From a virus, in IMG/VR virus record IMGVR_UViG_3300027969_000092, positions 2,262-66,261 of that record: a stretch of 64,000 nt of DNA. One strand, written 5' to 3'. The notes under the pieces are model-generated. The model saw only the letters and a program-made list of their open reading frames with translations, searched no databases and had not been told where the DNA came from. This document shows, one piece after another, positions 7,851 to 30,069 of the stretch (the first letter of the stretch is position 1; the number at the start of each line of letters is the position of its first letter). The translations under genes were made by a program, and so were the position numbers.

Positions 7851-8381
7851 TTATACTGCGAAGTCTGCTGCGAAGTCGTTGGCAGACACTGAAGCGCCAC
7901 CAAGTTTCTCACCGTCTTCAGTCTTCTTAACTGCGTTTAAACCGATTGCAATACCTTTGGTACCACTCACATCGTACGGATACATTGTGATTGAAGCACG
8001 GCCATAGCAACCGCTATAAAATTCATTCTTGTCCAAGATCTCTTGTGAGTTCTCATCAAAGATGCCAGGCTTCTCGTTAGAGTTAGCATTAAAGAAATAA
8101 TGACCTGCGTATACCTTGTCATCTTTCTCTAAGTCACCGTCACGTAATCCACCCTTTAATACTTTAGGCAATGATCCACCGAAGTAACCAATGTTGGCTT
8201 GCTTTGTTTCCTCAAATGCTTTGTTAAATGCTGCAACACCAGCCTTGTCTGATTTAGGAATCAGAATAGATGCTGAGTATTTCATAGAACCATTAAGTGT
8301 TTCTGCTGGCTCAAATACATGAACGAATGAGAAGCGAACTTTGTTAGTTACGTGTTTTACTTTTGTAGATTTTCCAGCCAT
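7851..8381 (-). CDS. DUF2815-family single-stranded DNA-binding protein
   Basis: VRFSFVHVFEP, KYSASILIPK, LRDGD, FYSGCYGRAS, acidic/aromatic tail. Confidence 0.9.
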   Translation of the reverse strand: MAGKSTKVKHVTNKVRFSFVHVFEPAETLNGSMKYSASILIPKSDKAGVAAFNKAFEETKQANIGYFGGSLPKVLKGGLRDGDLEKDDKVYAGHYFFNANSNEKPGIFDENSQEILDKNEFYSGCYGRASITMYPYDVSGTKGIAIGLNAVKKTEDGEKLGGASVSANDFAADFAV

Positions 8382-16711: not shown

Positions 16712-16845
16712 TCTGTTTGTGCCTTCATCATCTCAGCTATCAGATGTTGTGTGGTTTCAGGGATTGACGCTACAGGGGCGCCACGGATTAGCAGTCCTAA
16801 TAGGATCATGCCAGTGTAAAACGATTTTTGGTCTTGCTCATTCAT
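16708..16845 (-). CDS. Hypothetical 45-aa protein (not in ORF track)
   Basis: MNEQDQKSFYTGMILLGLLIRG...; TAATG and ATGA coupling. Confidence 0.55.
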   Translation of the reverse strand: MNEQDQKSFYTGMILLGLLIRGAPVASIPETTQHLIAEMMKAQTE

Positions 16846-19154
16846 TAGAATATACTTTCATCAAAGGTTTGGATTGAGTCGACATACTTCTGTGCCTTCT
16901 CGTTTAATTTAACACCACGATAGACATGGGAGCGGTTGCCGTCTGTTCTATCTAATGCTGATTCAATACGGTGTTCTTGTGTAGCTGCCAAGAAACGACG
17001 TTTAAACGCAAGCTCTGTTCCTGGCACAATGCTCTTCTTCAACGCCCAGTGCTTGTAGCAAGCAAACACTTCGTCTTTAGATACCTTGGATTCAGGTTCA
17101 AACACAAGGGCATCTTCTACAAACGAACCGATAGGGTTGCCCAGTTCACTCATCAACTCTAACAACTCAATGCCCGTCTTAGGTTGGATGAAGTGACCAC
17201 CACGTGCTAAGCGACGCTTTAAGCCTTCCATTGCCCAGTTGAAGATACCCGACAGTTCTTGCTCTAACTTGTGTGCTAACTCTGTGTCTTCGTTGTTGTA
17301 GAACGAGCGCGTCATCTTAAGCACTACCATACGACCAGTTAGCGCGTTAGAGTTCTCTGTTAACTGTAAGACCTCGTTTGAATAAACTACTATTCGTGTG
17401 GGTAAGTAACCATTCCACGATTCCTTATTTTTTCTATTAATGGTGATAGTATCACCTCCCACAATGCGCAACAGCTGACTGACCACAGCAGAACGATTAC
17501 GCTCAGGAGCACGGGCATCAGTAAAGGATGCAAGGAGTTTACCCAGCCAAGGTTGTAGTCCAAAAGTATCACAGAGTTCCTCCAGTTGTGGTGCTACAGT
17601 GTTGTGTTGTCCTAACAGGGCAACAAGGATTTTGTTAATTGTACCTTTACCTGAGCGACGTGGGCCAATAATGTTAAAAAACTTCTGCTGGCTGGTATCT
17701 CCTGAGAGGATGTAACCAAACATCTCTTGCAGTGCGTCAATAGACTCTTGATCTTCGTCCCAAACGGATTTAAGAAATGCGAGCCATAGTGGGCAGGTGG
17801 CGCTTTGGTTGTAAGAGAAAGGGAGAGAGTTTTGTGTAAAGAAACCCAATGAGTGCGGTATGAGCAATGTGTCTTCAAGGTGGAAGATACCATTCTGAAG
17901 AGACACCAACTTAGAGGCATCGGGTTTGTCCTGAGCATAAGACTCTAACCAAATCGGTGGCTTTGTATTAGCGTGATTGGGTAAGTGGGTAATTGACTTG
18001 ATGGCATCTAATGCTGCGGATACAGTTGCAGGGGACGGATTAAACGCTTCTAATGCGCCCTTCTTACCAGTTTTCTTACATCTGTCTAGGAGGGCATAGA
18101 GTCTCGAACGGATAGTAGCCTCTTCAATTACATCATAGTTTGTGGTGTTGTAGAGGTAGAAGTCCTGAGCATAGTGTACAAGGCGGTAGCCTTCCTCAGA
18201 GGAGTAGAGGTTGTCTAGGAATGTACGGGCATGGTTCATTGCTCCTTGGTCAAGGATAATCTCGCCACGTTGGAGGGCTTCAGTACGTTCTTGTTGGTTG
18301 ACCTTAAAGATCAATGAGCGCAATGTGGCACCAGAACCCTTAAACGTCGGCCACTTGGAATCACATTGACCAGAGGCATAGTTCTCTACTGAACCATCTC
18401 CATAGCTCCAACGCTCCCATAGTTCTAGGGCTTCGTAATCCCCGCCAAACTGGTGGTGTAGAGCAAACCCTACATTAAGCCAATCCGTATACCCACAGTC
18501 GGGTGATATGTGTGTCAGGATCTCTGTCTCTACCCTATGAATATCATAGTCCGCTACGGGTGGTGCATAATCCTCGAATGCGTCTCCTGTGTTACGAATG
18601 GCTCTAGCCGGAATAATGGATGTGAGGTCTTGTGGTTCCTGTGGCACTGTGCCGGTGAGGTGATGTCCTGTGATGGTGAAGTATCTGCCACGTGGATAGA
18701 TTTCTAAGCCTTTGGTATGGTCAACGTGGGCATTTGGCAGTACAGAACGGGTAAATATCTTTACACCAGTACCAGATGGGCTGATTTCCATGTAACCATC
18801 AATACTATCTGCTAATTGTTGCAGTGCAGCATTTGTAAAGCCTTTGTTGGTGTCGTAGCAATCATCTAAATCTACGCCAATGAGGTTGTCTTCATCGGAA
18901 AAGACGAATCCAACGCCATCAAAGCGGTTTGGGTTGTCCTCATAGGCAGATTGGACAGATAGAAAGTCCGCCCATGTTGCTGGGTTGGTTGAGGAGGCAG
19001 ACTGTCCATTGGATTGGGCTGGCAGTTTTGACCACCTTTTGGTGTCTCCACTGCCAACTTCCACAAATCGCCATAGAACCCACCTTGGAATACGCTTCAG
19101 TTCCATGGGGATGTTTTCAAATATAACTGGTAGGGTGGTAGGTTTTGTATTCAT
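16845..19154 (-). CDS. Primase-polymerase / PriCT-2 / D5-type SF3 helicase
   Basis: RWVLW..K.P..ASSTNPATW, GVDLDDC, EISPSGTG, YTDWLNVGFALH, Walker A GPRRSGKGT. Confidence 0.92.
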   Translation of the reverse strand: MNTKPTTLPVIFENIPMELKRIPRWVLWRFVEVGSGDTKRWSKLPAQSNGQSASSTNPATWADFLSVQSAYEDNPNRFDGVGFVFSDEDNLIGVDLDDCYDTNKGFTNAALQQLADSIDGYMEISPSGTGVKIFTRSVLPNAHVDHTKGLEIYPRGRYFTITGHHLTGTVPQEPQDLTSIIPARAIRNTGDAFEDYAPPVADYDIHRVETEILTHISPDCGYTDWLNVGFALHHQFGGDYEALELWERWSYGDGSVENYASGQCDSKWPTFKGSGATLRSLIFKVNQQERTEALQRGEIILDQGAMNHARTFLDNLYSSEEGYRLVHYAQDFYLYNTTNYDVIEEATIRSRLYALLDRCKKTGKKGALEAFNPSPATVSAALDAIKSITHLPNHANTKPPIWLESYAQDKPDASKLVSLQNGIFHLEDTLLIPHSLGFFTQNSLPFSYNQSATCPLWLAFLKSVWDEDQESIDALQEMFGYILSGDTSQQKFFNIIGPRRSGKGTINKILVALLGQHNTVAPQLEELCDTFGLQPWLGKLLASFTDARAPERNRSAVVSQLLRIVGGDTITINRKNKESWNGYLPTRIVVYSNEVLQLTENSNALTGRMVVLKMTRSFYNNEDTELAHKLEQELSGIFNWAMEGLKRRLARGGHFIQPKTGIELLELMSELGNPIGSFVEDALVFEPESKVSKDEVFACYKHWALKKSIVPGTELAFKRRFLAATQEHRIESALDRTDGNRSHVYRGVKLNEKAQKYVDSIQTFDESIF

Positions 19155-19161
19155 ACCTGTG

Positions 19162-19190
19162 ATTTTATAGTAAGTTTAAACACTTTGCAA
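19162..19190 (-). promoter_or_regulatory. sigma70 promoter for a probably leaderless primase mRNA
   Basis: TTGCAA-N17-TAAAAT, 7 nt before the ATG; GTTTAAAC in the spacer. Confidence 0.6.
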
Positions 19191-19344
19191 ACCTATTTAT
19201 GTAGGTATTTCACATTATGAAATGCCAATTTGCCAAACCTCCCCGCAAACCCTTATAGTAGAGCCATTGTCACGGTAGCTTTCCTATAACCACGGGGGTT
19301 AGCGGGTGATTTGTCACTTTTTGTCGAAAAATTGTCAGGGTACA

Positions 19345-19363
19345 AATGAGAATGATTCCTATT
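19345..19363. promoter_or_regulatory. Fur-box-like palindrome
   Basis: AATGAGAATGATTCCTATT, close to AATGAGAATnATTCTCATT. Confidence 0.55.
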
Positions 19364-19397
19364 TGACTACCAATAATCAACGACTTACGAACAAATT

Positions 19398-19514
19398 GTC
19401 ATAGTAGTCATAGTAGTCACCCTTACTTTTATTATTTTTATTATTTTTAAAAAACATAAAGTAAAGAGAGGGGGTAAAAGTGATTTAGACCCTGACTACT
19501 GTTACTACTATGAC
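19398..19514. repeat. Origin-like element copy 1 (inverted 9-bp iterons around an AT-rich core; IHF consensus at 19375-19387)
   Basis: GTCATAGTA x2 + GTCACC ... AT tract ... CCCTGAC-TACTGTTAC-TACTATGAC. Confidence 0.7.
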
Positions 19515-19715
19515 AATCCATAACTTTTAGTTATATAGAAATTGAAATGCTACTACTTTTGGTTATAAAAAGGGGACGACTTTAATAGCATGTCATATAG
19601 CCACCCTGGGAGATACACACAGTTTGTCCCCCGTTGGGTTGATTAATGATGATAGTTTCCGCAGCCAAAACGGGAGAGCTTATAAGGCATACTGTCAATA
19701 TAACTAAAAGTTTGG

Positions 19716-19910
19716 TCATTTGTTCACCTCATAACCTTTCTGTTCAATCATTCTGTATGCCCATTTTCTGAACTCAATGCGGTTTTCGCTTGTTTGGGCT
19801 TCTTTGTCATCCCATACGGCATCAAGGATATGCTCGCCTGTGGCATCGTTAAACTCAATCTTTAGCATATTGCCGTCTTTATCATAGATATCTACTGGTA
19901 TTGCTCTCAT
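19716..19910 (-). CDS. Hypothetical early protein
   Basis: ORF with ATGA coupling (start MRAIP). Confidence 0.55.
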   Translation of the reverse strand: MRAIPVDIYDKDGNMLKIEFNDATGEHILDAVWDDKEAQTSENRIEFRKWAYRMIEQKGYEVNK

Positions 19911-20179
19911 TTTGCACCCCATGTGTCTTGGTTGTTGTAATCGCCTCTAATCATGCTCATTCTTTCGTCTTTCCTACTTTTTGGCTCAACTGCAAGCCAT
20001 TGTTTAAACATCGCCTGATAGTGTAGGTAGTCATGGTTCATCTCAAACAATGGATGATTCATGCCCGCCACATCAACTGTGCTTAATACATCGCTAGACG
20101 GAATCCATTTATTTGAATGTCGGATTTTGTCTCGGGCTTGAATATATAGGGCATATGCTCGTTTTTGTTCGTCAGTCAT
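19907..20179 (-). CDS. Hypothetical early protein
   Basis: ORF with GAGGAG RBS. Confidence 0.6.
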   Translation of the reverse strand: MTDEQKRAYALYIQARDKIRHSNKWIPSSDVLSTVDVAGMNHPLFEMNHDYLHYQAMFKQWLAVEPKSRKDERMSMIRGDYNNQDTWGAK

Positions 20180-20744
20180 CGTGTTTCTCCTCTAGGTGAT
20201 CATCATTCTTTAACTCATTCAAATATGCGGGTTCTCTTGATATGTGGGCTTGCAATTCACTTATACGGACTTCTGACATCTTTGTATGGCTTGATAGCTC
20301 TGTCTTGGTAGGTTGCCTACATAACGATTGGGATAGGCTTCTCTCTATGTATTTGAGCTTCTTGATATCAAGCATGATATTGACAGGCAAACGGATAAGG
20401 TTCTCGGTGTTGTTTAACTCCCGCTTAACACCCCTCAATATGAATGGCTTGGCATAGGTGGCAAAACTGGCATTGTTAGTGGGTTTCCATGCCCTTGCTG
20501 ACATGAATAGGGCTTCATTACCCATGCTAAGGATGTCCTCAACGGGTGTCTTACCATGTTGCCATGCGGATAGGCTACGGACTACATAGACTACGAATCT
20601 AAGGTTGTGTTTGATTAGCTTTTCTAAGGCTTGTTGGTTGCCCTGTTGAATCTGACTAGCTAATTGGTGCTCCTCTGTAACTGAAAGAGGTTCTATCCCA
20701 TACAGGGATTGGAGGTAATCACTTAAAATATCATTTTGGGTCAT
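20172..20744 (-). CDS. Sigma70-like factor, regions 1.2-2-3 only (no region 4)
   Basis: LSDYLQSL...PLSVTEEHQLA, LIKHNLRFVV, EDILSMGNEAL, SFATYA, LIRLP, RQPTKTELS; ends at region 3.2. Confidence 0.88.
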   Translation of the reverse strand: MTQNDILSDYLQSLYGIEPLSVTEEHQLASQIQQGNQQALEKLIKHNLRFVVYVVRSLSAWQHGKTPVEDILSMGNEALFMSARAWKPTNNASFATYAKPFILRGVKRELNNTENLIRLPVNIMLDIKKLKYIERSLSQSLCRQPTKTELSSHTKMSEVRISELQAHISREPAYLNELKNDDHLEEKHDD

Positions 20745-20925
20745 CAGGGTTTCACATTATGAAATACGAAACCCTGATTATATTACTTTTTGTTATATAG
20801 GTGGTAATGATGCCAACAATACCATATAAGCAATGGTAGCCATGTATAGGTTAGTGCTTCCCACGCTAGACTTCCAAGCCACATGATAAAAACTGCGGGT
20901 AAATATAATATGTTTGCTACGAAAT

Positions 20926-21108
20926 TCATATCAATGCCTCTTTTAATAATGCGGTTGCCAACTCGTAATCTGTTGGTTGGGTTGGGAGTTCGGTTAGGGT
21001 CATGCCCTCTGTTAAGTAGGGCTTTGCCTCTCGTCTTGATGCAAACTTACGCAATGCCCCACCGAACTCATCAACAAGGATAAATTTATAGACAGATCGT
21101 TTAAACAT
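20926..21108 (-). CDS. Hypothetical early protein
   Basis: YKFILVDEFGGALRKFASRREA. Confidence 0.55.
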   Translation of the reverse strand: MFKRSVYKFILVDEFGGALRKFASRREAKPYLTEGMTLTELPTQPTDYELATALLKEALI

Positions 21109-21247
21109 CTTCTTCGTTGTCGTATAGACTATACTCCTCCTCGATCATTTCAATAACTTTCAATCGCCACATTAGCGTAGTCTTATCCTCATACTCATCT
21201 TCCAACTCAGAGTTAAGGATTGCATCTTCAATTTGATCTTGGGTCAT
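21101..21247 (-). CDS. Small acidic protein (start MTQDQ)
   Basis: GAGGAG RBS; ATGA overlap; highly acidic. Confidence 0.55.
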   Translation of the reverse strand: MTQDQIEDAILNSELEDEYEDKTTLMWRLKVIEMIEEEYSLYDNEEDV

Positions 21248-21462
21248 GTTCTGCTCCTCATAATGTCTGCTACTTCTTTGGTTATAACAACACAATCGCC
21301 TACGGGTGCTCGTCTTTCCATTCTGTCAAAACCATATATCAAGCCATTTGCCTCGTAATACTCCTTTGGCGGGTCAAGATATATCGTGCATCCTAACTGT
21401 CTAGATACTTTGCAAGCAAATCCCCTGTGCAACACATAATCTCCAAATTTAACAATGTCCAT
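21244..21462 (-). CDS. Small early protein, shares its C-terminus with the next gene
   Basis: C-terminal ITKEVADIMR. Confidence 0.6.
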   Translation of the reverse strand: MDIVKFGDYVLHRGFACKVSRQLGCTIYLDPPKEYYEANGLIYGFDRMERRAPVGDCVVITKEVADIMRSRT

Positions 21463-21464
21463 GT

Positions 21465-21644
21465 TTAAACACCTCGCATAATGTCTGCTACTTCTTTGGT
21501 TATGGGGTACAACTCATCATTAGATACAATCTTGGGGTGCTTGTTTCCATCCAGATCGAATATGTTTATCTGGGTATACATACCACCCACCACCCACACT
21601 TGACCAACATCCTCATTGGTCATAACCCAATCATTAGGGTTCAT
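21465..21644 (-). CDS. Small early protein, shares its C-terminus with the previous gene
   Basis: C-terminal ITKEVADIMR. Confidence 0.6.
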   Translation of the reverse strand: MNPNDWVMTNEDVGQVWVVGGMYTQINIFDLDGNKHPKIVSNDELYPITKEVADIMRGV

Positions 21645-22450
21645 TCCATCACCCAATATGAGGATTCGTTTTCCCTTAAACCAACACCCTCAACAAAATC
21701 CTTTCCGTCTGTGATATCCAACACAAACATCTTGCCTTTGATATCTTCAGGTAGATCATCTTTGTTGGCTAGTTTTACTACATCCTTTGTGCCGTCTTTG
21801 ATGTATTGCACCTCATTGGCTTTGACCCACACAAAATATGTGACGGGTTTGTAGTCGTGATATTTGTCAATCTGCTCTCGGTTAGTTACTAAATACTCCA
21901 TTGCATTTTTAAATGTAGGGGACTTAGGTGTATAGCCTGTGCTATGTAAGTAAAGCATATCTTCATAAGCAAGGTTAAACGCACCATTGGTCTTTTGATT
22001 TACTTCCCATGACCATTTGTTGCGTAAAGATTGGACTGCTTGTTCGTAGTTTCGCTTGCAACTCTCAATGTGTTGGAAGATAGTAATGGGTGCTAATGTT
22101 TTCTTAGCAATCTTCACAATGTTCTTAGCGTGGATAGACTGTTTCATTTGACCCATACCACCATACCCGTATCTACCATCATCAATGTTGCGGTTGGTAA
22201 TGGTGTATTTGCCGTCATACCTATGCTTTCCAATCTCCCCAATCTGCGTGTTTGGGTCATCGGCATGGTATATCTTCAATCCGAAACAAACACCCTGTTT
22301 AAACTCATCGGGCATATTGTATGTAGATATGTCGCATGGCTTATATGACAAATTGGGTATAGCACTTTGGATGTCTTTAGCTAGTGCCACTAAATTAGAA
22401 TCAACAAACGGAATGTCGTTAAATGGTTCGCAAATAATTTTATCACTCAT
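21641..22450 (-). CDS. Hypothetical early protein
   Basis: 269-aa ORF with GAGGAG RBS. Confidence 0.7.
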   Translation of the reverse strand: MSDKIICEPFNDIPFVDSNLVALAKDIQSAIPNLSYKPCDISTYNMPDEFKQGVCFGLKIYHADDPNTQIGEIGKHRYDGKYTITNRNIDDGRYGYGGMGQMKQSIHAKNIVKIAKKTLAPITIFQHIESCKRNYEQAVQSLRNKWSWEVNQKTNGAFNLAYEDMLYLHSTGYTPKSPTFKNAMEYLVTNREQIDKYHDYKPVTYFVWVKANEVQYIKDGTKDVVKLANKDDLPEDIKGKMFVLDITDGKDFVEGVGLRENESSYWVME

Positions 22451-22460
22451 AATTTTCTCC

Positions 22461-23420
22461 TCAATTAAACCAAGATTTATAGCGGTCTTTACACATCTTA
22501 CCCAATGGCACTTCTACTTCTTTAACAGGTTTAAACAACTCGTAAGCATGTTTGTTCAACAACTTGGGTAACTTTTCTTTGTGATAAGTGACGATTGATT
22601 TAGGATTTTGTCTATCTGTCCAATCATAGCGTTCATTTTTAATGAGATATTTGTAACTCTCTGCTATTGCAAACCAATGTTGGGGTGCATTGTCATCAAC
22701 TTGTTTAAACATATCGTGCTCGTCTATATCTAATTCTTGGCAAGCAAGGGTAATGGGGTTTTGCCAATAACCCACATACTTATCATCCACCATGTCCACC
22801 ATGACATTTAAATACTCTATCAATGGCTTAATTTGTGCTCTTACTTCCTTGGTTTTTGTGCGGTCTAATTGGTGTATTGTTTCACGATGCACTACCAATG
22901 GTTGCCAATACTTATCACCCTGTTTGCGTGTAAATGTAGTATCACCCTTCTCTGCGGTGTAATACTGAAAGCCATCCTCTGTTGATACTGCAACATACTT
23001 ACAAGAATTGTGATTGACCATGTTTAAACCGATTGGTAGGTTGTAATGGTAAAACCCGAATGTTGATGCACTACTCAAATACTTAGGATGTAACTGTGTG
23101 CCTTCTTTCCAATATGCCTTTGGTGTGTGGACTGTAACAGTTTCAATGCCATCGTTTAAACACCATGTAATAGCCCTGTTCAATGTTCTGTTACTGTGTT
23201 GCCATGCGTCAAACACAATCGCATATTCTGTGTCGCTAATCTTTAAAACTTGTTCCCAATCCCTTCTGCGTTCACCACATGGTCGAATGTTCAATGCTTT
23301 GCGTTTGCCTTGCAATGGTTTGATTGATTCATAACGGGATTTAATCTTCTCAAAATCCGAATAGGTTTGTGTTTGTGCCTGTACTTCCATTGGCGTTCTC
23401 ATGTAATTTCCGTAACCCAT
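22461..23420 (-). CDS. Hypothetical early protein (start MGYGN)
   Basis: GAGGAG RBS; IKPLQG...IRPCGERRR. Confidence 0.7.
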   Translation of the reverse strand: MGYGNYMRTPMEVQAQTQTYSDFEKIKSRYESIKPLQGKRKALNIRPCGERRRDWEQVLKISDTEYAIVFDAWQHSNRTLNRAITWCLNDGIETVTVHTPKAYWKEGTQLHPKYLSSASTFGFYHYNLPIGLNMVNHNSCKYVAVSTEDGFQYYTAEKGDTTFTRKQGDKYWQPLVVHRETIHQLDRTKTKEVRAQIKPLIEYLNVMVDMVDDKYVGYWQNPITLACQELDIDEHDMFKQVDDNAPQHWFAIAESYKYLIKNERYDWTDRQNPKSIVTYHKEKLPKLLNKHAYELFKPVKEVEVPLGKMCKDRYKSWFN

Positions 23421-23421
23421 C

Positions 23422-24582
23422 TTAATTCTCCTCAATATGAATTGCTGACCCAATGGTAGGGTTAGCGTGTTTGTTGTTTACAATAGCCCATAAAACAGGG
23501 CAACTCCATGACCCACCCCAATCGTTACCAACATGACCATCCGTTAAGACAATGGCACAAACTGGGTCAATCTTATGCTTACTCATGTACTTAGTAATGC
23601 AAGAGGGTCGTGTACCACCACCCCCGACTGGCTTAGTTGATGATGTCATGCGGGTGGCATCGTTTAAACCATATACCTCATGCCCCGCCACTTCGCTATC
23701 CCAATAGATCAGATCGACTTGTTCAGGGTTCACATTCTCCATAATGCTTGCAACTTCAGAGATAAACCTATTAAGGATGTCACCTTGGATAGACCCCGAT
23801 GTATCAATGGCAACAACAACTCGACCCATAGTTTCACTATATTGTGATGGCATATAGATGTCATGTTGTAACCATCTGCGGTTAGGTTTTCTCCATGTTG
23901 AATCGTCTTTGCCTTGGCATATAGCCGATACAAATTCACGGAGAGCATCTTTCCAATTTACCTTGGCACTCATAAGATCATCAAACGATCTGTTTAAACT
24001 ACCCCCCACCTTACCCGCTAAGATTGCACCTTGTCTAATGGCTTGGTCGATCTCTTTGGCTAATTCTTGGGCTTGGGCATCTGTCATCTCCTCTGCTCCT
24101 TCCCAATCATGCTCATCGAACCCGCCACCCATGCCTTGCCCACCATCTTGACTGTCTAGCAATGCAAACACCTCGGCACTATTTAAGCCACGATACTTCT
24201 CGTCATGTAAGCCACCCTTGGGTAATGTTACAAACCCATTACTAGCTTTGCCCTCATCGACAATCTCAATGTTAATCACATAGTCACAAGCCATATTTGC
24301 CCGTTGTGGGTCTTGCTTATTTAAGTGTTTCCATGTCAGTAGATGTCTATACATTTTGTGCTTTGCCTCATGCAAGATAACACCCCGCAAATCGGCATCG
24401 TTTAAACTCTCTACAAACTCCCTACCAAAATACACATCTTTACCATTGGTGCAAGCGGTTGGCACATCGTCTTTAACCTTAGCCTCGCCAATCATTAAGA
24501 TACCTGAATAGGCAACAAACTGCGGGGACTTCATTAAATCAATGTGTGCTCTTTCAATGCGTTGTTCTGCGGTTAGTGCCAT
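23422..24582 (-). CDS. DUF2201 metallopeptidase-like + vWA domain protein
   Basis: PTACTNG, ILHEAKH, ANMACDYVIN, MIDAS IDTSGS, GGGGT, LTDG. Confidence 0.88.
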   Translation of the reverse strand: MALTAEQRIERAHIDLMKSPQFVAYSGILMIGEAKVKDDVPTACTNGKDVYFGREFVESLNDADLRGVILHEAKHKMYRHLLTWKHLNKQDPQRANMACDYVINIEIVDEGKASNGFVTLPKGGLHDEKYRGLNSAEVFALLDSQDGGQGMGGGFDEHDWEGAEEMTDAQAQELAKEIDQAIRQGAILAGKVGGSLNRSFDDLMSAKVNWKDALREFVSAICQGKDDSTWRKPNRRWLQHDIYMPSQYSETMGRVVVAIDTSGSIQGDILNRFISEVASIMENVNPEQVDLIYWDSEVAGHEVYGLNDATRMTSSTKPVGGGGTRPSCITKYMSKHKIDPVCAIVLTDGHVGNDWGGSWSCPVLWAIVNNKHANPTIGSAIHIEEN

Positions 24583-24751
24583 GATTTTCCCTTTCGATTT
24601 GATTTAAAAAGTGTGCCTTTAATTCTGCACCCGTTCTAGACTTATAAGTTCGATTGTATTTTTCAAACTTGTACTTGCCCTCGGTGACTGTATTCCTACC
24701 AACTCCCCACCTCTCATCTGAATGATCTAATGAATATGCTTGCCACTCCAT
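24554..24751 (-). CDS. Hypothetical early protein
   Basis: GAGGAG RBS upstream of MEWQ. Confidence 0.5.
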   Translation of the reverse strand: MEWQAYSLDHSDERWGVGRNTVTEGKYKFEKYNRTYKSRTGAELKAHFLNQIERENHGTNRRTTH

Positions 24752-24866
24752 AATCAATTCTCCTCTTTAAAGTAAAGACAAAACACAATGTAACCAACAA
24801 TGCCCCAAGCCAATATCCCGCTATATGCTAAGAATGTAAAAAGGTAATCGTAAAATGTCATCATGT

Positions 24867-25946
24867 TTAAACTCCCTGTGCAAATAGGTAATTGTTATTG
24901 GTAGCCCATTTAATGAACCCTTGATTAGTGCCAACTGTTGCCTTCTTGGATGTACGCATAACACTCGTGGCAAACAATCCCTGTGCCTCTTTGGATAGTC
25001 TGTCTAGATACTTCATAAACTTAGACACATCATCTTTTTCAATCCTTTGGATTGCTGAATAGATAAGCATACAAACGGCACTAGGGGACTTAGGAATGGC
25101 ACACTTATCGGGGTTGGCTAGTACATCTTCCCATTGTGGCAACTCGTCATTTAATTGGATGATAGAGAGCATATCGTAGGTGGCTCGTTTTCCTATCGTG
25201 CCTGTGAGAGTATGCCCCATGATGTTTAAACCTAATCCCTTGGTTTTCTTAATGATGTCACTAGCCTTTTCTAAACTGCGTGGGGTAGTAAATGCGGGTC
25301 TAGGTGCTCTTGGGTCGTAGATATATTCATTGTCGCTTGCCTTGTCGAAATCCTCAAAACTTCCAAGCATTTGGGGGAATTGTTTTACAGTCAATAAAAC
25401 TTCAGGGGCAATGTTGTTCTCTAATGCCCATTCAATCCATTGGTCTGCTGATGGCTTGCGAACCTTTACAACTGCTAAGCGATTGCGGGCATGGGGTGGT
25501 AGATTGTCCCCAATAGCCTCATTAGCAAGGTTTGTAGTGGCGAACACAATAGACCCCTTGGGTAGATCATATATGCCTAGCTTGCGTTCTAGCATCAATC
25601 TAAGGCAAGCGTTCATTACTGCTTTACTTGCCTTGCCGATCTCATCAAGCATTAACACAATGGGCTTATTAAGGTGAAAGCCGAATTCCTCATTGGGTAT
25701 GAATGAGCACACCTCTGTGCCGTCAATGGTACGGATTTTAGGCACTAAAAAATCCCCTACATCCTTGGTAGTCATATCGCCATAACATACAAAATGATCG
25801 GGCAATTTGGCTTGTAACATCTTGAGCATGGATGACTTACCAATACCCATTTCGCCTTGTGCTAGGACTGTTACGCTGTCCCCTACGGCATGAATAAGGT
25901 CGGCACACTCTTGGAGAGTGACTGATTTGTATAGATCGTTTGACAT
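24867..25946 (-). CDS. MoxR-type AAA+ ATPase
   Basis: GEMGIGKS, LMLDEI, ATTN, TPRS. Confidence 0.88.
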   Translation of the reverse strand: MSNDLYKSVTLQECADLIHAVGDSVTVLAQGEMGIGKSSMLKMLQAKLPDHFVCYGDMTTKDVGDFLVPKIRTIDGTEVCSFIPNEEFGFHLNKPIVLMLDEIGKASKAVMNACLRLMLERKLGIYDLPKGSIVFATTNLANEAIGDNLPPHARNRLAVVKVRKPSADQWIEWALENNIAPEVLLTVKQFPQMLGSFEDFDKASDNEYIYDPRAPRPAFTTPRSLEKASDIIKKTKGLGLNIMGHTLTGTIGKRATYDMLSIIQLNDELPQWEDVLANPDKCAIPKSPSAVCMLIYSAIQRIEKDDVSKFMKYLDRLSKEAQGLFATSVMRTSKKATVGTNQGFIKWATNNNYLFAQGV

Positions 25947-26130
25947 GGTGTTTAAACTCCTTTAATTGGTATAGGTTGGGTTATATAAATCAGGTGCTAT
26001 ACAAGCCACAAAAAACAGGCAAAGCAATAAGACAATAATTGCGATATTTTCTCTCATAATGTCGTTCCCCATAATAGCAAAATGGCAATAAATATGGCTA
26101 GGGATAAACCCTTTAATAAATAGATCATGT

Positions 26131-26289
26131 TTAAACACCTTCCTTTGGTTTTGTATTAGTTGAATAATGGCTTTTTATATAGTCGGACAATATGTCAGTC
26201 AATCTACCTGAATCCCCATAAAACCAATTATCGGCTTCAATGTATTCAAGTAAATCTTCAAGGGCTTGAAATTCTGCATATGTCATCAT
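26131..26289 (-). CDS. Hypothetical 52-aa early protein (not in ORF track)
   Basis: MMTYAEFQALEDLLEYIEADNWFYGDSGR...KEGV; GGAG-GTTTAAAC-ATG junction. Confidence 0.6.
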   Translation of the reverse strand: MMTYAEFQALEDLLEYIEADNWFYGDSGRLTDILSDYIKSHYSTNTKPKEGV

Positions 26290-26291
26290 GT

Positions 26292-26450
26292 TTAAACCAC
26301 TCCTTCAGGTATCTGTTTAAATAAATAATATAAATGGTCAGGCACATAAACAACTTGCCCTTCTTCATCTCTAAATTCGTGTCCATCGGGGGTCAATGCT
26401 TTTCCCCGTTGGTCTATGTGGTAAAACTGTTCATAAATTGGGGTAATCAT
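26292..26450 (-). CDS. Hypothetical 52-aa early protein (not in ORF track)
   Basis: MITPIYEQFYHIDQRGKALTPDGHEFRDEEG...EGVV; GGAG-GTTTAAAC-ATG junction. Confidence 0.6.
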   Translation of the reverse strand: MITPIYEQFYHIDQRGKALTPDGHEFRDEEGQVVYVPDHLYYLFKQIPEGVV

Positions 26451-26452
26451 GT

Positions 26453-26695
26453 TTAAACACTCCCGTCTAATAGGTTGTCAAAATAGGACTGTGGCAACTC
26501 GGGGGCTTGGACACCATCAAGCCATTTATTGATGTGGCGGGTTGTTGTCTTGCTCCATTTCGTATCAGTCTTAGAAAATGAATAAGTGCTCTTATCAAAA
26601 CTAGCAACGGGTGTGGAATAGCTGAATAAGACTATCTGATTATTTGATTCTAAGAGGGTCATATTAGATGCGAGAATTTTTACTTGTAATGACAT
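26453..26695 (-). CDS. Early phage protein
   Basis: VLFSYSTPVA...WSKTTTRHINKW; AAGGA RBS. Confidence 0.7.
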   Translation of the reverse strand: MSLQVKILASNMTLLESNNQIVLFSYSTPVASFDKSTYSFSKTDTKWSKTTTRHINKWLDGVQAPELPQSYFDNLLDGSV

Positions 26696-26747
26696 GGTGT
26701 GATTCCTTTGTGGTTGGTTTTAAGGGGGTTTTTAGCCCCCGTTTGGG

Positions 26748-26951
26748 TTAGATGGTGGGCTTGCCTAGCATTTGTGCTAATTCGTTATAGACTGCGGTTC
26801 TAGTGCCTTTTAGACCTAGCTCCTTTTTAACTAGGCTATACATGGTCATGCCCCTTGATACTCTCATTCCTTTGATCTCAAGACCTAGACCCCGTAGGAT
26901 AGTTATGTAACGGAATGTTGCTATTTGTGTTGGATTGGTGATCATGGTCAT
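26748..26951 (-). CDS. Early phage protein
   Basis: GLGLEIKGM..SRG...YSLVKKELGLKG; AGGAG RBS. Confidence 0.7.
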   Translation of the reverse strand: MTMITNPTQIATFRYITILRGLGLEIKGMRVSRGMTMYSLVKKELGLKGTRTAVYNELAQMLGKPTI

Positions 26952-26954
26952 GGT

Positions 26955-27128
26955 TTATTCTCCTAAATAAAAATTGTCTGACATTACTACGGGTAGGTAA
27001 TTATTACGGATCTGTCTAAGTGCTCCCGAATCTTTCCCGCTATACCATAGCAAGGACAATTCGTTTTTCCAATTAGCCCCATGTATACGGGCAAACTCTC
27101 TTAATGCGGTGATCTGTGTATCGTTCAT
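26955..27128 (-). CDS. Hypothetical 57-aa early protein (not in ORF track)
   Basis: MNDTQITALREFARIHGANWKNELSLLWYSGKDSGALRQIRNNY...; AAGGA RBS. Confidence 0.65.
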   Translation of the reverse strand: MNDTQITALREFARIHGANWKNELSLLWYSGKDSGALRQIRNNYLPVVMSDNFYLGE

Positions 27129-27186
27129 GGTGTTAGTTTCCTTTGGTGTTGTTTAAACATGGCGGGGGTTTGCCCCGCCTGTTGGT

Positions 27187-27777
27187 TTAATCTTCTTTAA
27201 TCTCTACTGTCATACCCCATCCGTAGGCTTCACAGTCTTGGTCAGGGCAAGTAGGTAGGGCAACTTCGATCCATTTCTTAGATGTGTACACCTGATACTC
27301 ACAATGTGAGCATACGCATTTGATTTGGCGGGTGGTTTGCTTTTTGGTGTTGGATTGCATTAGGGGGGCATGTGGATATTGTCCCGCTTGATCTACCCAT
27401 GACTGAATGAGGGCTTTCAATTCGGCATTGGCACTAGCTGATCTCATTTGACCCTCTAATCCTACGGCATTGGCACATTGTTTAAACACCTTGCCATGTC
27501 CCGCCTTGTTGCCTACTGTGGCATGGCATAACTCATGGATAAGGATATCAATAACCTCTACGCTATCGGCTACCTTGGGGCTAATGAAGATCTCTGATGT
27601 ATTGTCCTCACTATTGGCACTAGACCAACATTCGCCAATGTGTTTCTTACTAGATGTAAGGGAACAAGACATTCTGACATTGTCGGGGATGGTGTAACCC
27701 GCTTTGGCAAAATGCGGTCTAGCATATGTATCGGTGATGTAGTTGAGGTATGTTTCTCTGTTGGTAGTGTGGTTCAT
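27187..27777 (-). CDS. SprT-like Zn metalloprotease with C-terminal Zn ribbon; first early gene
   Basis: IGECW, EIFISP, LIHELCH...GHG..FK, C-x-C-x2-C...CP. Confidence 0.8.
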   Translation of the reverse strand: MNHTTNRETYLNYITDTYARPHFAKAGYTIPDNVRMSCSLTSSKKHIGECWSSANSEDNTSEIFISPKVADSVEVIDILIHELCHATVGNKAGHGKVFKQCANAVGLEGQMRSASANAELKALIQSWVDQAGQYPHAPLMQSNTKKQTTRQIKCVCSHCEYQVYTSKKWIEVALPTCPDQDCEAYGWGMTVEIKED

Positions 27778-27830
27778 GGTTTGCTCTATTCCTTAGTGGT
27801 TAGTTGTCATGGGTTAGCCCCATAACTTAA

Positions 27831-27859
27831 ACAATATAGATGTTTTGGCATTGTGTCTA
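27831..27859 (-). promoter_or_regulatory. Candidate early sigma70 promoter
   Basis: TAGACA-N17-TATTGT with an AT-rich UP-like region. Confidence 0.45.
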
Positions 27860-28100
27860 ATAATAAAAAGTAATATAGGAATGGTTCTTTATACTAAGGG
27901 TTAACCCTGACAAAATCGAGATCGCATGGGGTGTAATAGTAAGGCAAGCCAAGCGATCAAGTCGGCTATAAACCCCCTTAAAACCCCTTGGCTTCGATTG
28001 TCATTTTGTCGGGTAGTTTTCTTGATCTTGGTGGCGGGTTCTTTTTGATGCGTTGCAACATTACTTCCACTCTCCCTCTCAGCTCTCGCACCCGCATAGC

Positions 28101-28350
28101 TATGTTGCACCGCACAAAAACCATACTGCCATTGTGGTTATGTTGCACCGCAACATATTGTTTAAACACCATGCCATTATGTTAGTGTGTGCTAACATCC
28201 GTATCATCTATGTTGCACCGCACCATTATGTTGCGTTGCACAATAACCATATTGCCATTGTGGTTATGTTGCACCGCACAAAGACCATGATGCCATTGTG
28301 GTTATGTTGCACCACACCATTATGTTGCGTTGCATCATTGTTGCACCGCA
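28101..28350. repeat. Array of TGTTGCRYYRCA boxes (8 copies) interleaved with ACCATnnTGCCATTGTGGT (3 copies)
   Basis: Copies at 28103, 28141, 28211, 28229, 28267, 28305, 28323, 28339. Confidence 0.85.
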
Positions 28351-28627
28351 CCATTTCACATTATGAGATATGATTTCACAATGCGAAACAAAGGTAAGGT
28401 TTTTATGATGCGATGCACCATTTTTCGAGACCCCCATGCCACGGTCTTGAGTCTCTACCCAAAAGCCAGCTCCTATAATTCCGGCCCCCAGAAATTTTTT
28501 TTTGAAAATTTGACAGAAATCAATGCACCTTTTTGGTGCATCCATACTACTGTTGCTTTAACTACCGCTCGTAAGTCCTTGATAGTTCGTAGAAGTTGTA
28601 TGACGAGGCGCTCGTAAGTCCTTGATA

Positions 28628-28744
28628 GTAACAGTAGTCATAGTAGTCACCCTTACTTTTTATTATTTTATTATTTTAAAAAAATAAAAAACGTATAGGG
28701 AGCCCTAAAGTGATTTAGACCCTGACTACTATGACTACTGTTAC
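28628..28744. repeat. Origin-like element copy 2 (direct repeat of 19398-19514), preceded by two IHF consensus sites
   Basis: 28633-28660 and 28707-28730 identical to copy 1; WATCAANNNNTTR on the minus strand at 28572-28584 and 28615-28627. Confidence 0.75.
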
Positions 28745-28769
28745 TATTTTTGGTATATTTTTGGATTGA

Positions 28770-28805: not shown

Positions 28806-29114
28806 ATGAGCAAGTATGTCTATCAAATCCAAGGTGCATTGGAAAATGCCCGTGGCCAACTCAAAGGCCTGCGAATTCTGATATGCGACGTGCACAACAT
28901 CGATATGGTAGACGTACCAGTGGAAATCTTGGACCAAGCAACAGCCAAGTATCTGCAGTTTAGGATTAGTATTACATCCAACGCTGTCAATATCCAACGA
29001 CTGCCAGTCGAAGTCCAAAACAAAATACGCGCTCCGTTAGGGAGATGGCTGGACCATTGGGTCCTAGAAAACTTTCATGGCAATCCTAGCAAACGAAAAA
29101 GTACTAACCCTTGA
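28806..29114 (+). CDS. Hypothetical protein, first late gene
   Basis: ORF starts at the predicted +1 of the promoter. Confidence 0.65.
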   Translation: MSKYVYQIQGALENARGQLKGLRILICDVHNIDMVDVPVEILDQATAKYLQFRISITSNAVNIQRLPVEVQNKIRAPLGRWLDHWVLENFHGNPSKRKSTNP

Positions 29115-30069
29115 CTATTGGAAACCAGCCCGCCTTCTAAAGGTCGGTGATTATGTATTTGACCGTACTGGCAAGCTGGTACAGGTTAAATTGGTACAAG
29201 AGTACCGTGCCCAGCGGTGCTACCTAGTACAGTTCTCTGACAACCTGACCATGTCCGGTGATGAGAACCTTGGATTTCTCACAGAAAACAAGTTCCACCG
29301 CAGCAGAATCCACCAGTATAAGCAAGTTCGCAAGTTCAAACGCCCATTACGGCATATTGACGTTAAGCAACTACTTACCAAGTCTCTCAAATGTCGACCA
29401 GTAGAGTATCAGTACTCCATTCAGACTGCGCAACCCCTGGAATTACCCCACCAAACCCTGCCAGTACCCCCATTTGTGTTTGGTTTTTGGTTTTTTAACC
29501 GCAAAATGAACCGGCGCATGACGCCACCCAAAGGTTTTAAGGACGATGTACACCAGGAATTCAAAGACGCTGGGTACAAACTGACAGAAGGGTGGCTATC
29601 CGAATCAGGTGAACGGGAATTCTCTGCGCTTCCTAGCATTGAGCACCACTTACTGCCTAACATCCCTTACAAAATTCCGAATAACTACCTGTTGGCGGAC
29701 AAAGACCAGCGAATTGCCCTGCTCCGTGGCATAATTTATTCCAAACCCCGGCAATACAACCACAAAACTGACACGTTTCGGTTTTCTAACAAGAATTTAA
29801 GTGTTGTGCAGCAGGTTCAGTCCCTGGTAGAGTCCTTGGGGCATAGAACTACCCTGCAACACAACGAACCTAACGGTACCTATATACTTTTATTTAGAAG
29901 TAAGTTAAAATTGGTATCTAACCAAGTATCAAAACCTTTAAAAATTGTATATGGACGTAGATTCATACGGGCTATTGAAGAAATAGCGCCACAATCTTGC
30001 GTTCATATTGAAACCACTGCACCAGACAACACTATTCTCGTAGGAGAAGGATTTATTTCAACATGTTGA
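29077..30069 (+). CDS. Free-standing degenerate intein (Hint-N / LAGLIDADG / Hint-C)
   Basis: AILANEKVLT..W....LKVGDYVFD..G; CYLVQFSD; LPVPPFVFGFW; IPNNYL.A...QRIALLRGI; LVESLG; RFIRAIE; ILVGEGFIST. Confidence 0.8.
   Translation: MAILANEKVLTLDYWKPARLLKVGDYVFDRTGKLVQVKLVQEYRAQRCYLVQFSDNLTMSGDENLGFLTENKFHRSRIHQYKQVRKFKRPLRHIDVKQLLTKSLKCRPVEYQYSIQTAQPLELPHQTLPVPPFVFGFWFFNRKMNRRMTPPKGFKDDVHQEFKDAGYKLTEGWLSESGEREFSALPSIEHHLLPNIPYKIPNNYLLADKDQRIALLRGIIYSKPRQYNHKTDTFRFSNKNLSVVQQVQSLVESLGHRTTLQHNEPNGTYILLFRSKLKLVSNQVSKPLKIVYGRRFIRAIEEIAPQSCVHIETTAPDNTILVGEGFISTC

Follow-up and report, generated by a model that had tools for sequence, protein, structure and literature searches.

Stoperators are 13-bp, asymmetric DNA sites of temperate phages that are oriented with transcription and bound by a monomeric helix-turn-helix (HTH) immunity repressor of the L5 gp71 type. 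Here, we analyze a 64-kb stretch of viral DNA (bases 2262-66261 of the IMG/VR record IMGVR_UViG_3300027969_000092, hereafter the window), in which an exact 8-bp palindrome, GTTTAAAC, is repeated along an early operon that also encodes a SprT-like protein with a Cys-rich zinc-ribbon tail. In working principle, the closest described counterpart of this array is the stoperator array of Cluster A mycobacteriophages, as outlined in passages of two publications (PMC9283540, PMC6550527). Both comprise dozens of short conserved sites dispersed in transcribed DNA, often at gene junctions, that vary between clades and are tied to one phage protein. Unlike stoperators, the sites described here are 8-bp palindromes with symmetric T/A flanks, half of them are intragenic, and their candidate binder is the SprT-like/zinc-ribbon protein. 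The GTTTAAAC array is not a member of the stoperator system.

Two further classes of repeated words invite comparison. The start-associated sequences of Cluster K phages and the promoter-early stem-loops of T4-type phages are short repeats that precede many early gene starts. They are found only at gene starts or between genes, whereas 11 of the 21 sites in the early block of the window, and 74 of 226 site clusters in its relatives, are internal to genes; furthermore, unlike these repeats, GTTTAAAC goes together with one particular protein gene in phages that are not related. Meanwhile, HIP1 (highly iterated palindrome 1) of cyanobacteria is an exact 8-bp palindrome that is a property of host chromosomes. 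Like HIP1, GTTTAAAC is written repeatedly into coding sequence by DNA-level selection, but it is phage-borne, linked to a SprT-like gene and, in the clade of the window, confined to one operon.

On the protein side, SPRTN and Wss1 are DNA-dependent metalloproteases involved in DNA-protein crosslink repair in eukaryotes, and we know of no sequence-specific docking word for the Spartan or SprT-like family. The protein of the window may share their arrangement, an HExxH zincin half with a small sub-domain behind it that binds zinc and DNA, as judged by sequence and a weak match to the structure 6MDW; unlike them, seven of 22 aligned phage homologues lack HExxH and are nevertheless accompanied by arrays. 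ArdC of conjugative plasmids, for which, to our knowledge, no word has been described, combines a DNA-binding part with a Spartan-like metalloprotease, works against restriction early, on incoming DNA, and binds single-stranded DNA. Phage homologues without the ribbon, which we compare with ArdC and one of which (from Bordetella phage CN1) is annotated as an “antirestriction protein,” differ from the word-paired family in having no array.

A final comparison concerns the DNA in which the array lies. For phage T5, passages of the Davison preprint (10.1101/866236) report that targets of EcoRI and of CRISPR systems are effective only in the first-step region, and that the pre-early region must lack restriction targets, only later DNA being shielded by its products. 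Like the first-step-transfer region of T5, the array-bearing part of the window is a block of ~9-10 kb with many small early genes that is free of five restriction-type 4-mers. The special sequences of T5, DnaA boxes and palindromes, are gathered in one untranslated region, while the octamer array runs through genes; and T5 DNA enters in two steps and has terminal repeats and a stop signal for injection, while the likeness seen here is one of sequence.

An octamer under selection in the early block

The window contains 25 copies of GTTTAAAC, compared with 1.76 ± 1.42 expected and at most six in 100 dinucleotide-preserving shuffles, and 21 of these copies are confined to positions 19174-28167. 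An original prediction, made from the letters of the DNA, had listed these 21 positions, from 19174 to 28160, and every one of them was found by exact count; it had also noticed about three copies elsewhere, where there are in fact four (2630, 7935, 17000 and 55860), the one at 7935 having been overlooked. The full 66,261-bp virus record, which carries a direct-terminal-repeat flag that refers to the contig ends only, likewise holds 25 copies, and two copies of a control word, the octamer read backwards. Apart from its own overlapping neighbor, GTTTAAAC is the top 8-mer of the region.

Manual reading of the 21 sites (Table 1) places six at stop/start junctions, one between a Shine-Dalgarno (SD) sequence and its ATG, one in codons 2-4 of a doubtful open reading frame (ORF), two between genes and 11 within genes, the intragenic sites using both frames that avoid an in-frame TAA. 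This bears out the earlier description of junctions of the form GTT-TAA-AC-ATG that leave proteins ending in Val, of about half of the sites inside coding sequence, and of one site in the primase promoter spacer: owing to that junction form or an overlapping one, six early proteins have a C-terminal Val, and the site at 19174 lies within the 17-nt spacer of a TTGCAA...TAAAAT match.

In the 22 called coding sequences (CDS; 8,211 nt), 13 copies lie wholly inside CDS. Synonymous shuffling gave 3.85 ± 1.38 copies (maximum 9), which is a generous null because the codons used by the sites are kept, and shuffling of codon order gave a mean of 0.19 (maximum 2); in neither case did any of 1000 shuffles reach 13. 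The excess thus survives the codon-aware null that the original prediction had named as its check. Amino-acid contexts able to spell the word do so in 13 of 15 instances in the same CDS. When ORFs of at least 100 aa are compared, the word is spelled in 10 of 11 such contexts in the early block versus five of 27 elsewhere (one of those five in a probably spurious ORF), and word-capable contexts are themselves 3.5 times denser in the early block (6.3 versus 1.8 per 1000 codons).

The word is an all-or-none 8-mer whose one-mismatch variants are not enriched. The block in the window holds 21 exact and only three one-mismatch sites, and the arrays of relatives hold 573 exact and 142 one-mismatch sites, against a chance ratio of 22.6 one-mismatch sites per exact site.

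An alignment of the AAA gene from 80 genomes, 28 of them array-bearing (the window counted) and 52 without an array, shows how sites come about. Amino-acid replacements created sites at columns that differ among sub-clades: RTIDG is replaced by RSLNG/D (AGT TTA AAC) in 21 of the 28 array-bearing genomes, RSLEK by RSLNK/R in 15 and LGIDI by LGLNI in five. Since the columns differ and the sites were made by replacement, selection must act on the DNA word and its density and not on fixed positions. Clustering of 652 sites from 28 genomes by their flanks yielded ~226 independent positions, 65 with TAA as a stop, 74 internal and 87 in other contexts, with a modest symmetric flank preference for T at -1 and A at +8. 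The excess of GTTTAAAC is therefore real and strongly selected, and is neither a codon nor a junction artefact; the shuffles and the replacement-made sites in relatives together uphold the earlier claim of a selected mark.

Co-occurrence with a SprT-like zinc-ribbon gene

Relatives of the window were reached through proteins only. The AAA protein led to 112 IMG/VR stretches, of which the best 80 were kept; 27 of these carry GTTTAAAC at 0.64-1.9 copies per kb, and 53 have zero or one copy. Whole records of five array-bearing relatives contain 44, 29, 32, 33 and 24 copies (0-3 for the backwards control), which are also packed in one block; in two of these records, for example, 9.5 kb hold 29 of 32 copies and 8.9 kb hold 27 of 29. 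A homologue of the SprT-like protein is encoded by 26 of the 27 array-bearing loci and by none of the 53 array-free loci; the only early proteins that the window has in common with the latter are the AAA and DUF2201 proteins and two larger ORFs.

Because this partition could reflect the history of one clade, clade-independent tests were run in both directions. A scan of IMG/VR for three copies of GTTTAAAC spaced 150-180 nt apart returned 55 stretches of 25-53% GC, 29 of which encode a SprT-like homologue (27-79% identity) within the fetched stretch. Most of the 55 share none of the early genes of the window, and almost none share another besides this one. Conversely, an alignment of 22 homologues retrieved at least 577 IMG/VR relatives, and 70 of the 77 newly fetched best loci have at least four copies of the word, loci of 56-61% GC among them.

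The same pairing is found in named phages. Dinoroseobacter phage R5C has 17 copies of GTTTAAAC (0.36 expected), Pseudanabaena phage Pan1 has 16 (0.30 expected), Burkholderia phage Mica has seven (0.19 expected), Methylophilales phage Venkman has 34, and Escherichia phage ep3 and Pseudomonas phage Persinger have four each. In Venkman, whose homologue is gp1, the first 19 kb contain 32 of the 34 copies, while the sites of R5C and Pan1 are spread genome-wide, about every 4.5 kb, often in long genes (up to 1,502 codons, in DNA of 62% GC). Three actinophages have no GTTTAAAC and carry, in both orientations, the one-base variant GTTTACAC (A or C at position 6), with 23 copies in Microbacterium phage UtzChips (0.33 expected), 24 in Arthrobacter phage Lizalica and 39 in Streptomyces phage UNTPL. 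The word thus travels with the SprT-like KQTTR/zinc-ribbon gene across very different phages.

The position of the gene relative to the sites is also uneven. In 27 loci selected by homology, at least 4 kb is available to either side of the gene; the 4 kb downstream contain 177 sites in total and the 4 kb upstream contain 37. Of these loci, 23 have more sites downstream, two have more upstream and two have none on either side. In the window, one site is upstream of the gene, one inside it and 19 downstream. This downstream excess indicates that the SprT-like gene heads the array. By manual reading, eight of the nine array-bearing isolates have a site ~16-80 nt upstream of the gene, the site in R5C being at ~380 nt.

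The protein of the window (27187-27777, minus strand) is, by its Pfam match, a SprT-like zincin (PF10263, E 1.4e-9, 38.2 bits versus a cut-off of 25.6), and DNA-dependent protease activity is a predicted trait of this family; it also matches phrog_6361 (E 1.6e-40). In the alignment of 22 homologues, the HExxH motif is visible as HELCH, and the C-terminal Cys-rich ribbon has an invariant C156 and a near-invariant C177. The seven homologues that lack HExxH retain the invariant YPH...KQ(T/S)TR...Cys-ribbon tail and have arrays of 1.25-4.0 sites per kb. In contrast, the homologues of Bordetella phage CN1 and Pseudomonas phages Psa21-HRN and Epa43 keep the protease half and YPH but have another tail, without KQTTR or the Cys ribbon, and these phages hold one, zero and zero copies of either word in 60-64 kb. 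Thus, the array follows the ribbon tail and not the protease. Among 10 isolate proteins, no ribbon residue that would separate the GTTTAAAC type from the GTTTACAC type is obvious.

A structure model of the protein has a predicted local distance difference test (pLDDT) value of 90.7, and a Foldseek search against the PDB gave no match at E ≤ 0.001. Prediction of a homodimer scored 0.68, compared with a best score of 0.00 in three controls, a level reached by 20 of 30 proteins solved as one-chain pairs and by one of 23 solved as single chains. The dimer runs agree in at least 91% of contacts with a partner pLDDT of at least 86, and the predicted interface is two-fold symmetric, with the invariant residues E8, L11 and H136 in or beside it. 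A homodimer is supported by these models.

A different kind of repeat was observed in relatives that have the AAA and DUF2201 genes and lack the SprT-like gene (L069, L055, L046, L081, L077, L067 and L034). Each clade among them has a perfect palindrome of its own, 17-21 bp long (TTCGGGAC-N-GTCCCGAA, TAGGATATAC-N-GTATATCCTA and GCTTCATAT-N-ATATGAAGC are examples), with 6-9 copies directly upstream of early-gene ribosome-binding sites, in junction positions that GTTTAAAC also takes. These palindromes are probably operators of a different regulator.

The early block and its surroundings

The genes of the region, all of them encoded on the minus strand, make up the first 9 kb of a leftward operon that departs from a control region rich in iterons at about 28.1-28.4 kb. 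From 29 kb on, the terminase and structural genes point rightward, and the array adjoins the terminase genes. Besides the larger genes listed in Table 1, the early block consists of many small ORFs. The AT content is slightly higher in the region than elsewhere in the window. A megablast search of the region against named phages gave no match, scans of the small early proteins with Pfam and PHROGs detected no DNA-binding family, and the same scans of 30 window proteins detected no HTH repressor and no integrase. A promoter and terminator scan of the region returned no more matches than shuffled sequences did.

Table 1. Positions of the octamer sites, genes and other elements of the early block and its flanks
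Feature	Position	Strand	Context or basis
GTTTAAAC site	28160..28167		Codons 2-4 (ATG GTG TTT AAA C) of a doubtful 64-aa ORF, in the iteron-rich control region
GTTTAAAC site	27480..27487		Within the SprT-like gene, frame xxG TTT AAA Cxx
GTTTAAAC site	27151..27158		Intergenic; adjoins terminator-like hairpin 27161-27179; upstream of 57-aa ORF 26955-27128
GTTTAAAC site	26451..26458		Junction: GTT TAA ends 80-aa ORF, AC, ATG starts 52-aa ORF
GTTTAAAC site	26290..26297		Junction: stop of ORF 26292-26450, then start of ORF 26131-26289
GTTTAAAC site	26129..26136		Junction: stop of ORF 26131-26289, ATG immediately after
GTTTAAAC site	25950..25957		Between SD (AAAGGAG) and ATG of the AAA gene
GTTTAAAC site	25224..25231		Within the AAA gene, GGT TTA AAC = Gly-Leu-Asn; relatives without a site here read LG[I/D]D[I/V]
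GTTTAAAC site	24865..24872		Junction: AAA gene stop (GTT TAA), then ATG of 36-aa ORF
GTTTAAAC site	24400..24407		Within the DUF2201 gene
GTTTAAAC site	23992..23999		Within the DUF2201 gene
GTTTAAAC site	23662..23669		Within the DUF2201 gene
GTTTAAAC site	23154..23161		Within 330-aa ORF 22461-23453, Leu-Asn frame
GTTTAAAC site	23022..23029		Within 330-aa ORF 22461-23453, Leu-Asn frame
GTTTAAAC site	22703..22710		Within 330-aa ORF 22461-23453, Phe-Lys frame
GTTTAAAC site	22529..22536		Within 330-aa ORF 22461-23453, Phe-Lys frame
GTTTAAAC site	22297..22304		Within 269-aa ORF 21641-22450, Phe-Lys frame
GTTTAAAC site	21463..21470		Junction: 63-aa ORF stop, then 72-aa ORF ATG
GTTTAAAC site	21099..21106		Junction: GAT GTT TAA stop overlaps ATG TTT AAA, start of 60-aa ORF
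GTTTAAAC site	20002..20009		Within 90-aa ORF 19907-20179, Phe-Lys frame
GTTTAAAC site	19174..19181		Array ends with this site, which falls in the 17-nt spacer of a promoter match (TTGCAA...TAAAAT, 19190-19162, minus) preceding the primase gene; likewise in relative L009
SprT-like/zinc-ribbon protein gene, 196 aa	27187..27777	-	Candidate word binder, near the promoter-proximal end of the array; PF10263, phrog_6361, alignment, model, co-occurrence
MoxR-like AAA protein gene	24867-25946	-	
DUF2201 metallopeptidase/VWA protein gene	23422-24582	-	
Sigma-70-like protein, 190 aa	20172-20744	-	Weak matches to regions 1.2, 2 and 3, below Pfam cut-offs; no region 4 match
D5-type primase gene	16845-19154		Follows the early block, as do replication genes
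Gap without any ACGT, CCGG, CGCG, GCGC or GGCC	18725..28480		9,757 bp; holds all 21 array sites
GGGCG-N17-GCATTAGT copies	11254(-), 28770, 31505, 34632, 38582, 49355, 54110, 60542		
123-nt element	19395..19517		Itself an inverted repeat, 25-nt arms around an AT-rich center
123-nt element, second copy	28625..28747		79% identical to the first

The array lies in a gap in restriction-type sites. The five 4-mers that are absent from it occur at ~11 per kb in the rest of the window, and the early block also lacks 45 of the 64 six-base palindromes and is depleted in AGCT and GTAC. Array-bearing relatives keep the gap, and it encloses their arrays: all 22 sites of L026, 23 of the 25 of L038 and 31 of the 35 of L014 lie in it. 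In L020 and L043, the gap is interrupted. The stretch looks like a restriction-naive block that would be exposed early during entry. A link between array and gap beyond the clade of the window was considered and rejected: the records G008 and G006 have arrays without such a gap, and in Venkman (MT375522) and the IMG/VR record G009, both of 34% GC, the five GC-type 4-mer palindromes are missing genome-wide, save for three and one copies in ~39 kb.

Further elements surround the block. The motif GGGCG-N17-GCATTAGT occurs in eight exact copies (0.09 expected), all outside the early block, and is plausibly a promoter for the phage's own sigma-like factor. Two 123-nt elements bracket the block and could be origins, repeat boundaries or insulators. 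Dense TATGTTGCACCGCA-type iterons, both direct and inverted, occupy 28043-28424 at the head of the early operon, where they likely form an origin or control region. Additionally, TTTCACATTATGA(A/G)AT is a second, low-copy, operator-like element that is present three times, before the primase gene (19208-19228), before the sigma-like gene (20750-20770) and in the divergent control region (28354-28374). At 25962-26128 (minus strand), a 24-aa hydrophobic peptide followed by a 31-aa peptide with a lipobox-like LFFVAC can be read by eye, in place of which the ORF list gives one 58-aa GTG ORF. A 330-aa ORF at 29077-30069 (plus strand) overlaps the start of the terminase and has a weak LAGLIDADG_3 match (E 0.0031).

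A proposed role and its rivals

On balance, we favor the view that the word is a docking site of the SprT-like ribbon protein, which would act as a stoperator-like roadblock on the early operon. We infer that the protein binds the word, that it does so as a dimer and that binding represses transcription. Made early, near the head of the leftward operon, the protein would bind GTTTAAAC, most likely as a two-fold symmetric dimer, the KQTTR/zinc-ribbon tail being the part that would track the word. As its level rises, it would come to sit on the 20 sites that lie downstream of its own gene start, at junctions, within genes and in the primase promoter spacer, and the bound protein would block host RNA polymerase along the early operon, turning the early genes off. 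The primase promoter would be gated in the same way, while the phage-type promoters elsewhere are without the word, and the protease half may also remove proteins bound to early DNA.

This role is preferred because the sites favor junctions, with one in a promoter spacer both in the window and in the relative L009; because lineages without HExxH keep their arrays; and because sister clades without the gene carry the 17-21 bp palindromes at the same junction positions. We also count toward it the arrangement in UtzChips, where manual reading places many sites at a fixed position in TTGCGC-N17-TAnACT spacers. The original prediction had proposed a protein-binding mark, with several possible purposes. 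A binding mark is still the best reading of the word, for which there is now a named candidate binder, and a global early shut-off operator is retained as the preferred form of it, given the junction and promoter-spacer sites, although spacer placement is not enriched. The placement of the mark on first-injected DNA, also part of that prediction, would have indirect support in the gap free of the five 4-base palindromes and in the neighboring terminase genes. Cassette exchange as the main purpose is unlikely, since 11 of the 21 sites lie in conserved genes and were made by replacement.

Several results weigh against the proposed docking site and roadblock. Promoter-spacer placement fails as a clade-wide rule (eight of 226 clusters versus 9.3 ± 2.9 at random), and so does a site just before the SprT-like gene, the mark of an autoregulated repressor, found in five of 74 loci versus 6.5 expected (three of the 77 loci were dropped, the gene start being within 200 nt of an edge or not found). 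In 26 of the 55 triple-site loci, no homologue is present in the fetched stretch, although the gene may lie outside it; seven of the 77 homology-selected loci have fewer than four sites, two of them (L175 and L207) none; and, because many loci in each set are close kin, these counts overstate the number of independent events. The best PDB match of the structure model, the SprT domain of Spartan (6MDW), is weak (E 2.7e-3, template-modeling score 0.34-0.36). Co-occurrence could also arise through another co-inherited or host factor, and which variant of the word a phage carries goes both with the phylum of its host and with the clade of its protein. A symmetric dimer is a poor match for the non-palindromic GTTTACAC, and the genome-wide spread of sites in R5C and Pan1 suits a guard or organizer better than an early shut-off.

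Among other accounts, it is possible, if doubtful, that the SprT-like protein is an address-tagged, DNA-activated protease that destroys host proteins (restriction enzymes, silencers, defence nucleases) on the first-expressed, perhaps first-entering DNA, where the octamers would station it every few hundred bases. Such a protein would represent a new anti-defence class, a Spartan-like protease with a sequence address, and would account for the overlap of the array with the one part of the genome that has to survive without restriction sites. Rather unlikely is an arrangement in which a host protein or another phage protein binds the word and the SprT-like protein acts on or beside that factor, for example by cleaving it. 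This would suit a protease-like family, a variant that tracks host phylum (GTTTACAC in the three actinophages, GTTTAAAC in proteobacterial and cyanobacterial phages) and a non-palindromic GTTTACAC that is awkward for a symmetric dimer. Nevertheless, the word is nearly identical across hosts of at least three phyla, its presence follows the ribbon tail of the phage protein and not the protease half, and no other gene of the window is common to unrelated array-bearing phages; moreover, since lineages without HExxH keep dense arrays, cleavage cannot be the core role.

The remaining explanations have far less in their favor than the roadblock proposal. The word might act in RNA, as GUUUAAAC, either in a coupled SD-N-GUU-UAA-AC-AUG junction for translation or as the target of an RNA regulator or nuclease, its excess coming from the many small early genes. 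Seven of the 21 sites do lie at stop/start junctions or between SD and ATG, 65 of 226 clusters in relatives use TAA as a stop, and the upstream flank is purine-rich with an ATG often next, but junctions are the cheapest spot for a word that contains TAA. This account is made very improbable by the 11 of 21 sites that are internal and stem from amino-acid changes, by the R5C and Pan1 sites in genes of up to 1,502 codons at 62% GC, and by the word itself, which cannot form a hairpin and has symmetric T(-1)/A(+8) flanks. Just as improbable is a restriction-modification or methylation mark on early DNA, involving a rare cutter or methyltransferase of host or phage. An exact 8-bp palindrome that tolerates no mismatches, in a stretch otherwise purged of restriction-type palindromes, would be in keeping with such a mark, and we take GTTTAAAC to be the PmeI recognition sequence; yet the word is enriched and not avoided, its actinophage variant is non-palindromic, it tracks the SprT-like ribbon gene, and Pfam scans, which covered 30 window proteins, turned up neither a DNA methyltransferase nor a restriction enzyme but only a small class-I S-adenosylmethionine methyltransferase domain (PF08241, 15528-16073). 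Chi words are exact 5-8-mers that differ between hosts, and a recombination signal of that kind, active against RecBCD/AddAB at the entering end, or a short homology for early-cassette exchange, could be read into the many sites at the borders of small, variable early genes and into an array that may sit at a genome end. We find this hardly credible, as the internal sites in conserved genes are of no use for cassette exchange, the same word, unlike Chi, spans host phyla, its distribution is genome-wide in R5C and Pan1, and the link to the ribbon gene is left unexplained. Finally, the chance is negligible that the excess is an artefact, whether of composition, of codon usage or of common descent from a single repeated segment: TTT, AAA and TTA are common codons here and the region is slightly AT-richer, but dinucleotide, synonymous and codon-order shuffles never reach the observed count, ~226 positions in 28 genomes are independent, and genomes of 62% GC hold 16-17 copies against 0.3-0.4 expected. 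We also considered and dropped -1 frameshifting on U_UUA_AAC, primase recognition, packaging signals, bendability of the last-packaged DNA and a phage sigma promoter, since exactness extends to the outer G and C of the word, which is found in every frame and differs from the phage-type promoter motif.

Literature searches found no description of the word or of its pairing with the SprT-like gene, in agreement with the original prediction, which had known of none for the word. A passage of a Cluster AZ preprint mentions repeat sequences near the SprT-like gene of that cluster as “data not shown”; its passages on that gene name no repeated word, and its authors may have seen the variant word. 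Cultured systems that carry the pairing exist, namely Venkman, R5C, Pan1, Mica, and the Cluster AZ and Microbacterium phages.

Sequence comparison thus makes the array part of a widespread protein-plus-word system with a putative function. If the pairing holds, at least 577 IMG/VR stretches and phages from hosts of at least three phyla (Actinobacteria, Proteobacteria and Cyanobacteria) share an undescribed protein-plus-address system, in which a Spartan-like zinc-ribbon protein is matched with an exact octamer that is written at a cost to protein sequence. A widespread gene whose present annotations go no further than “SprT-like protease” or “transcription elongation protein” would thereby gain a function, and DNA word and binder would form a pair that is compact and portable. 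In the clade of the window, the system would mark an early block that resembles a T5-style restriction-naive region.

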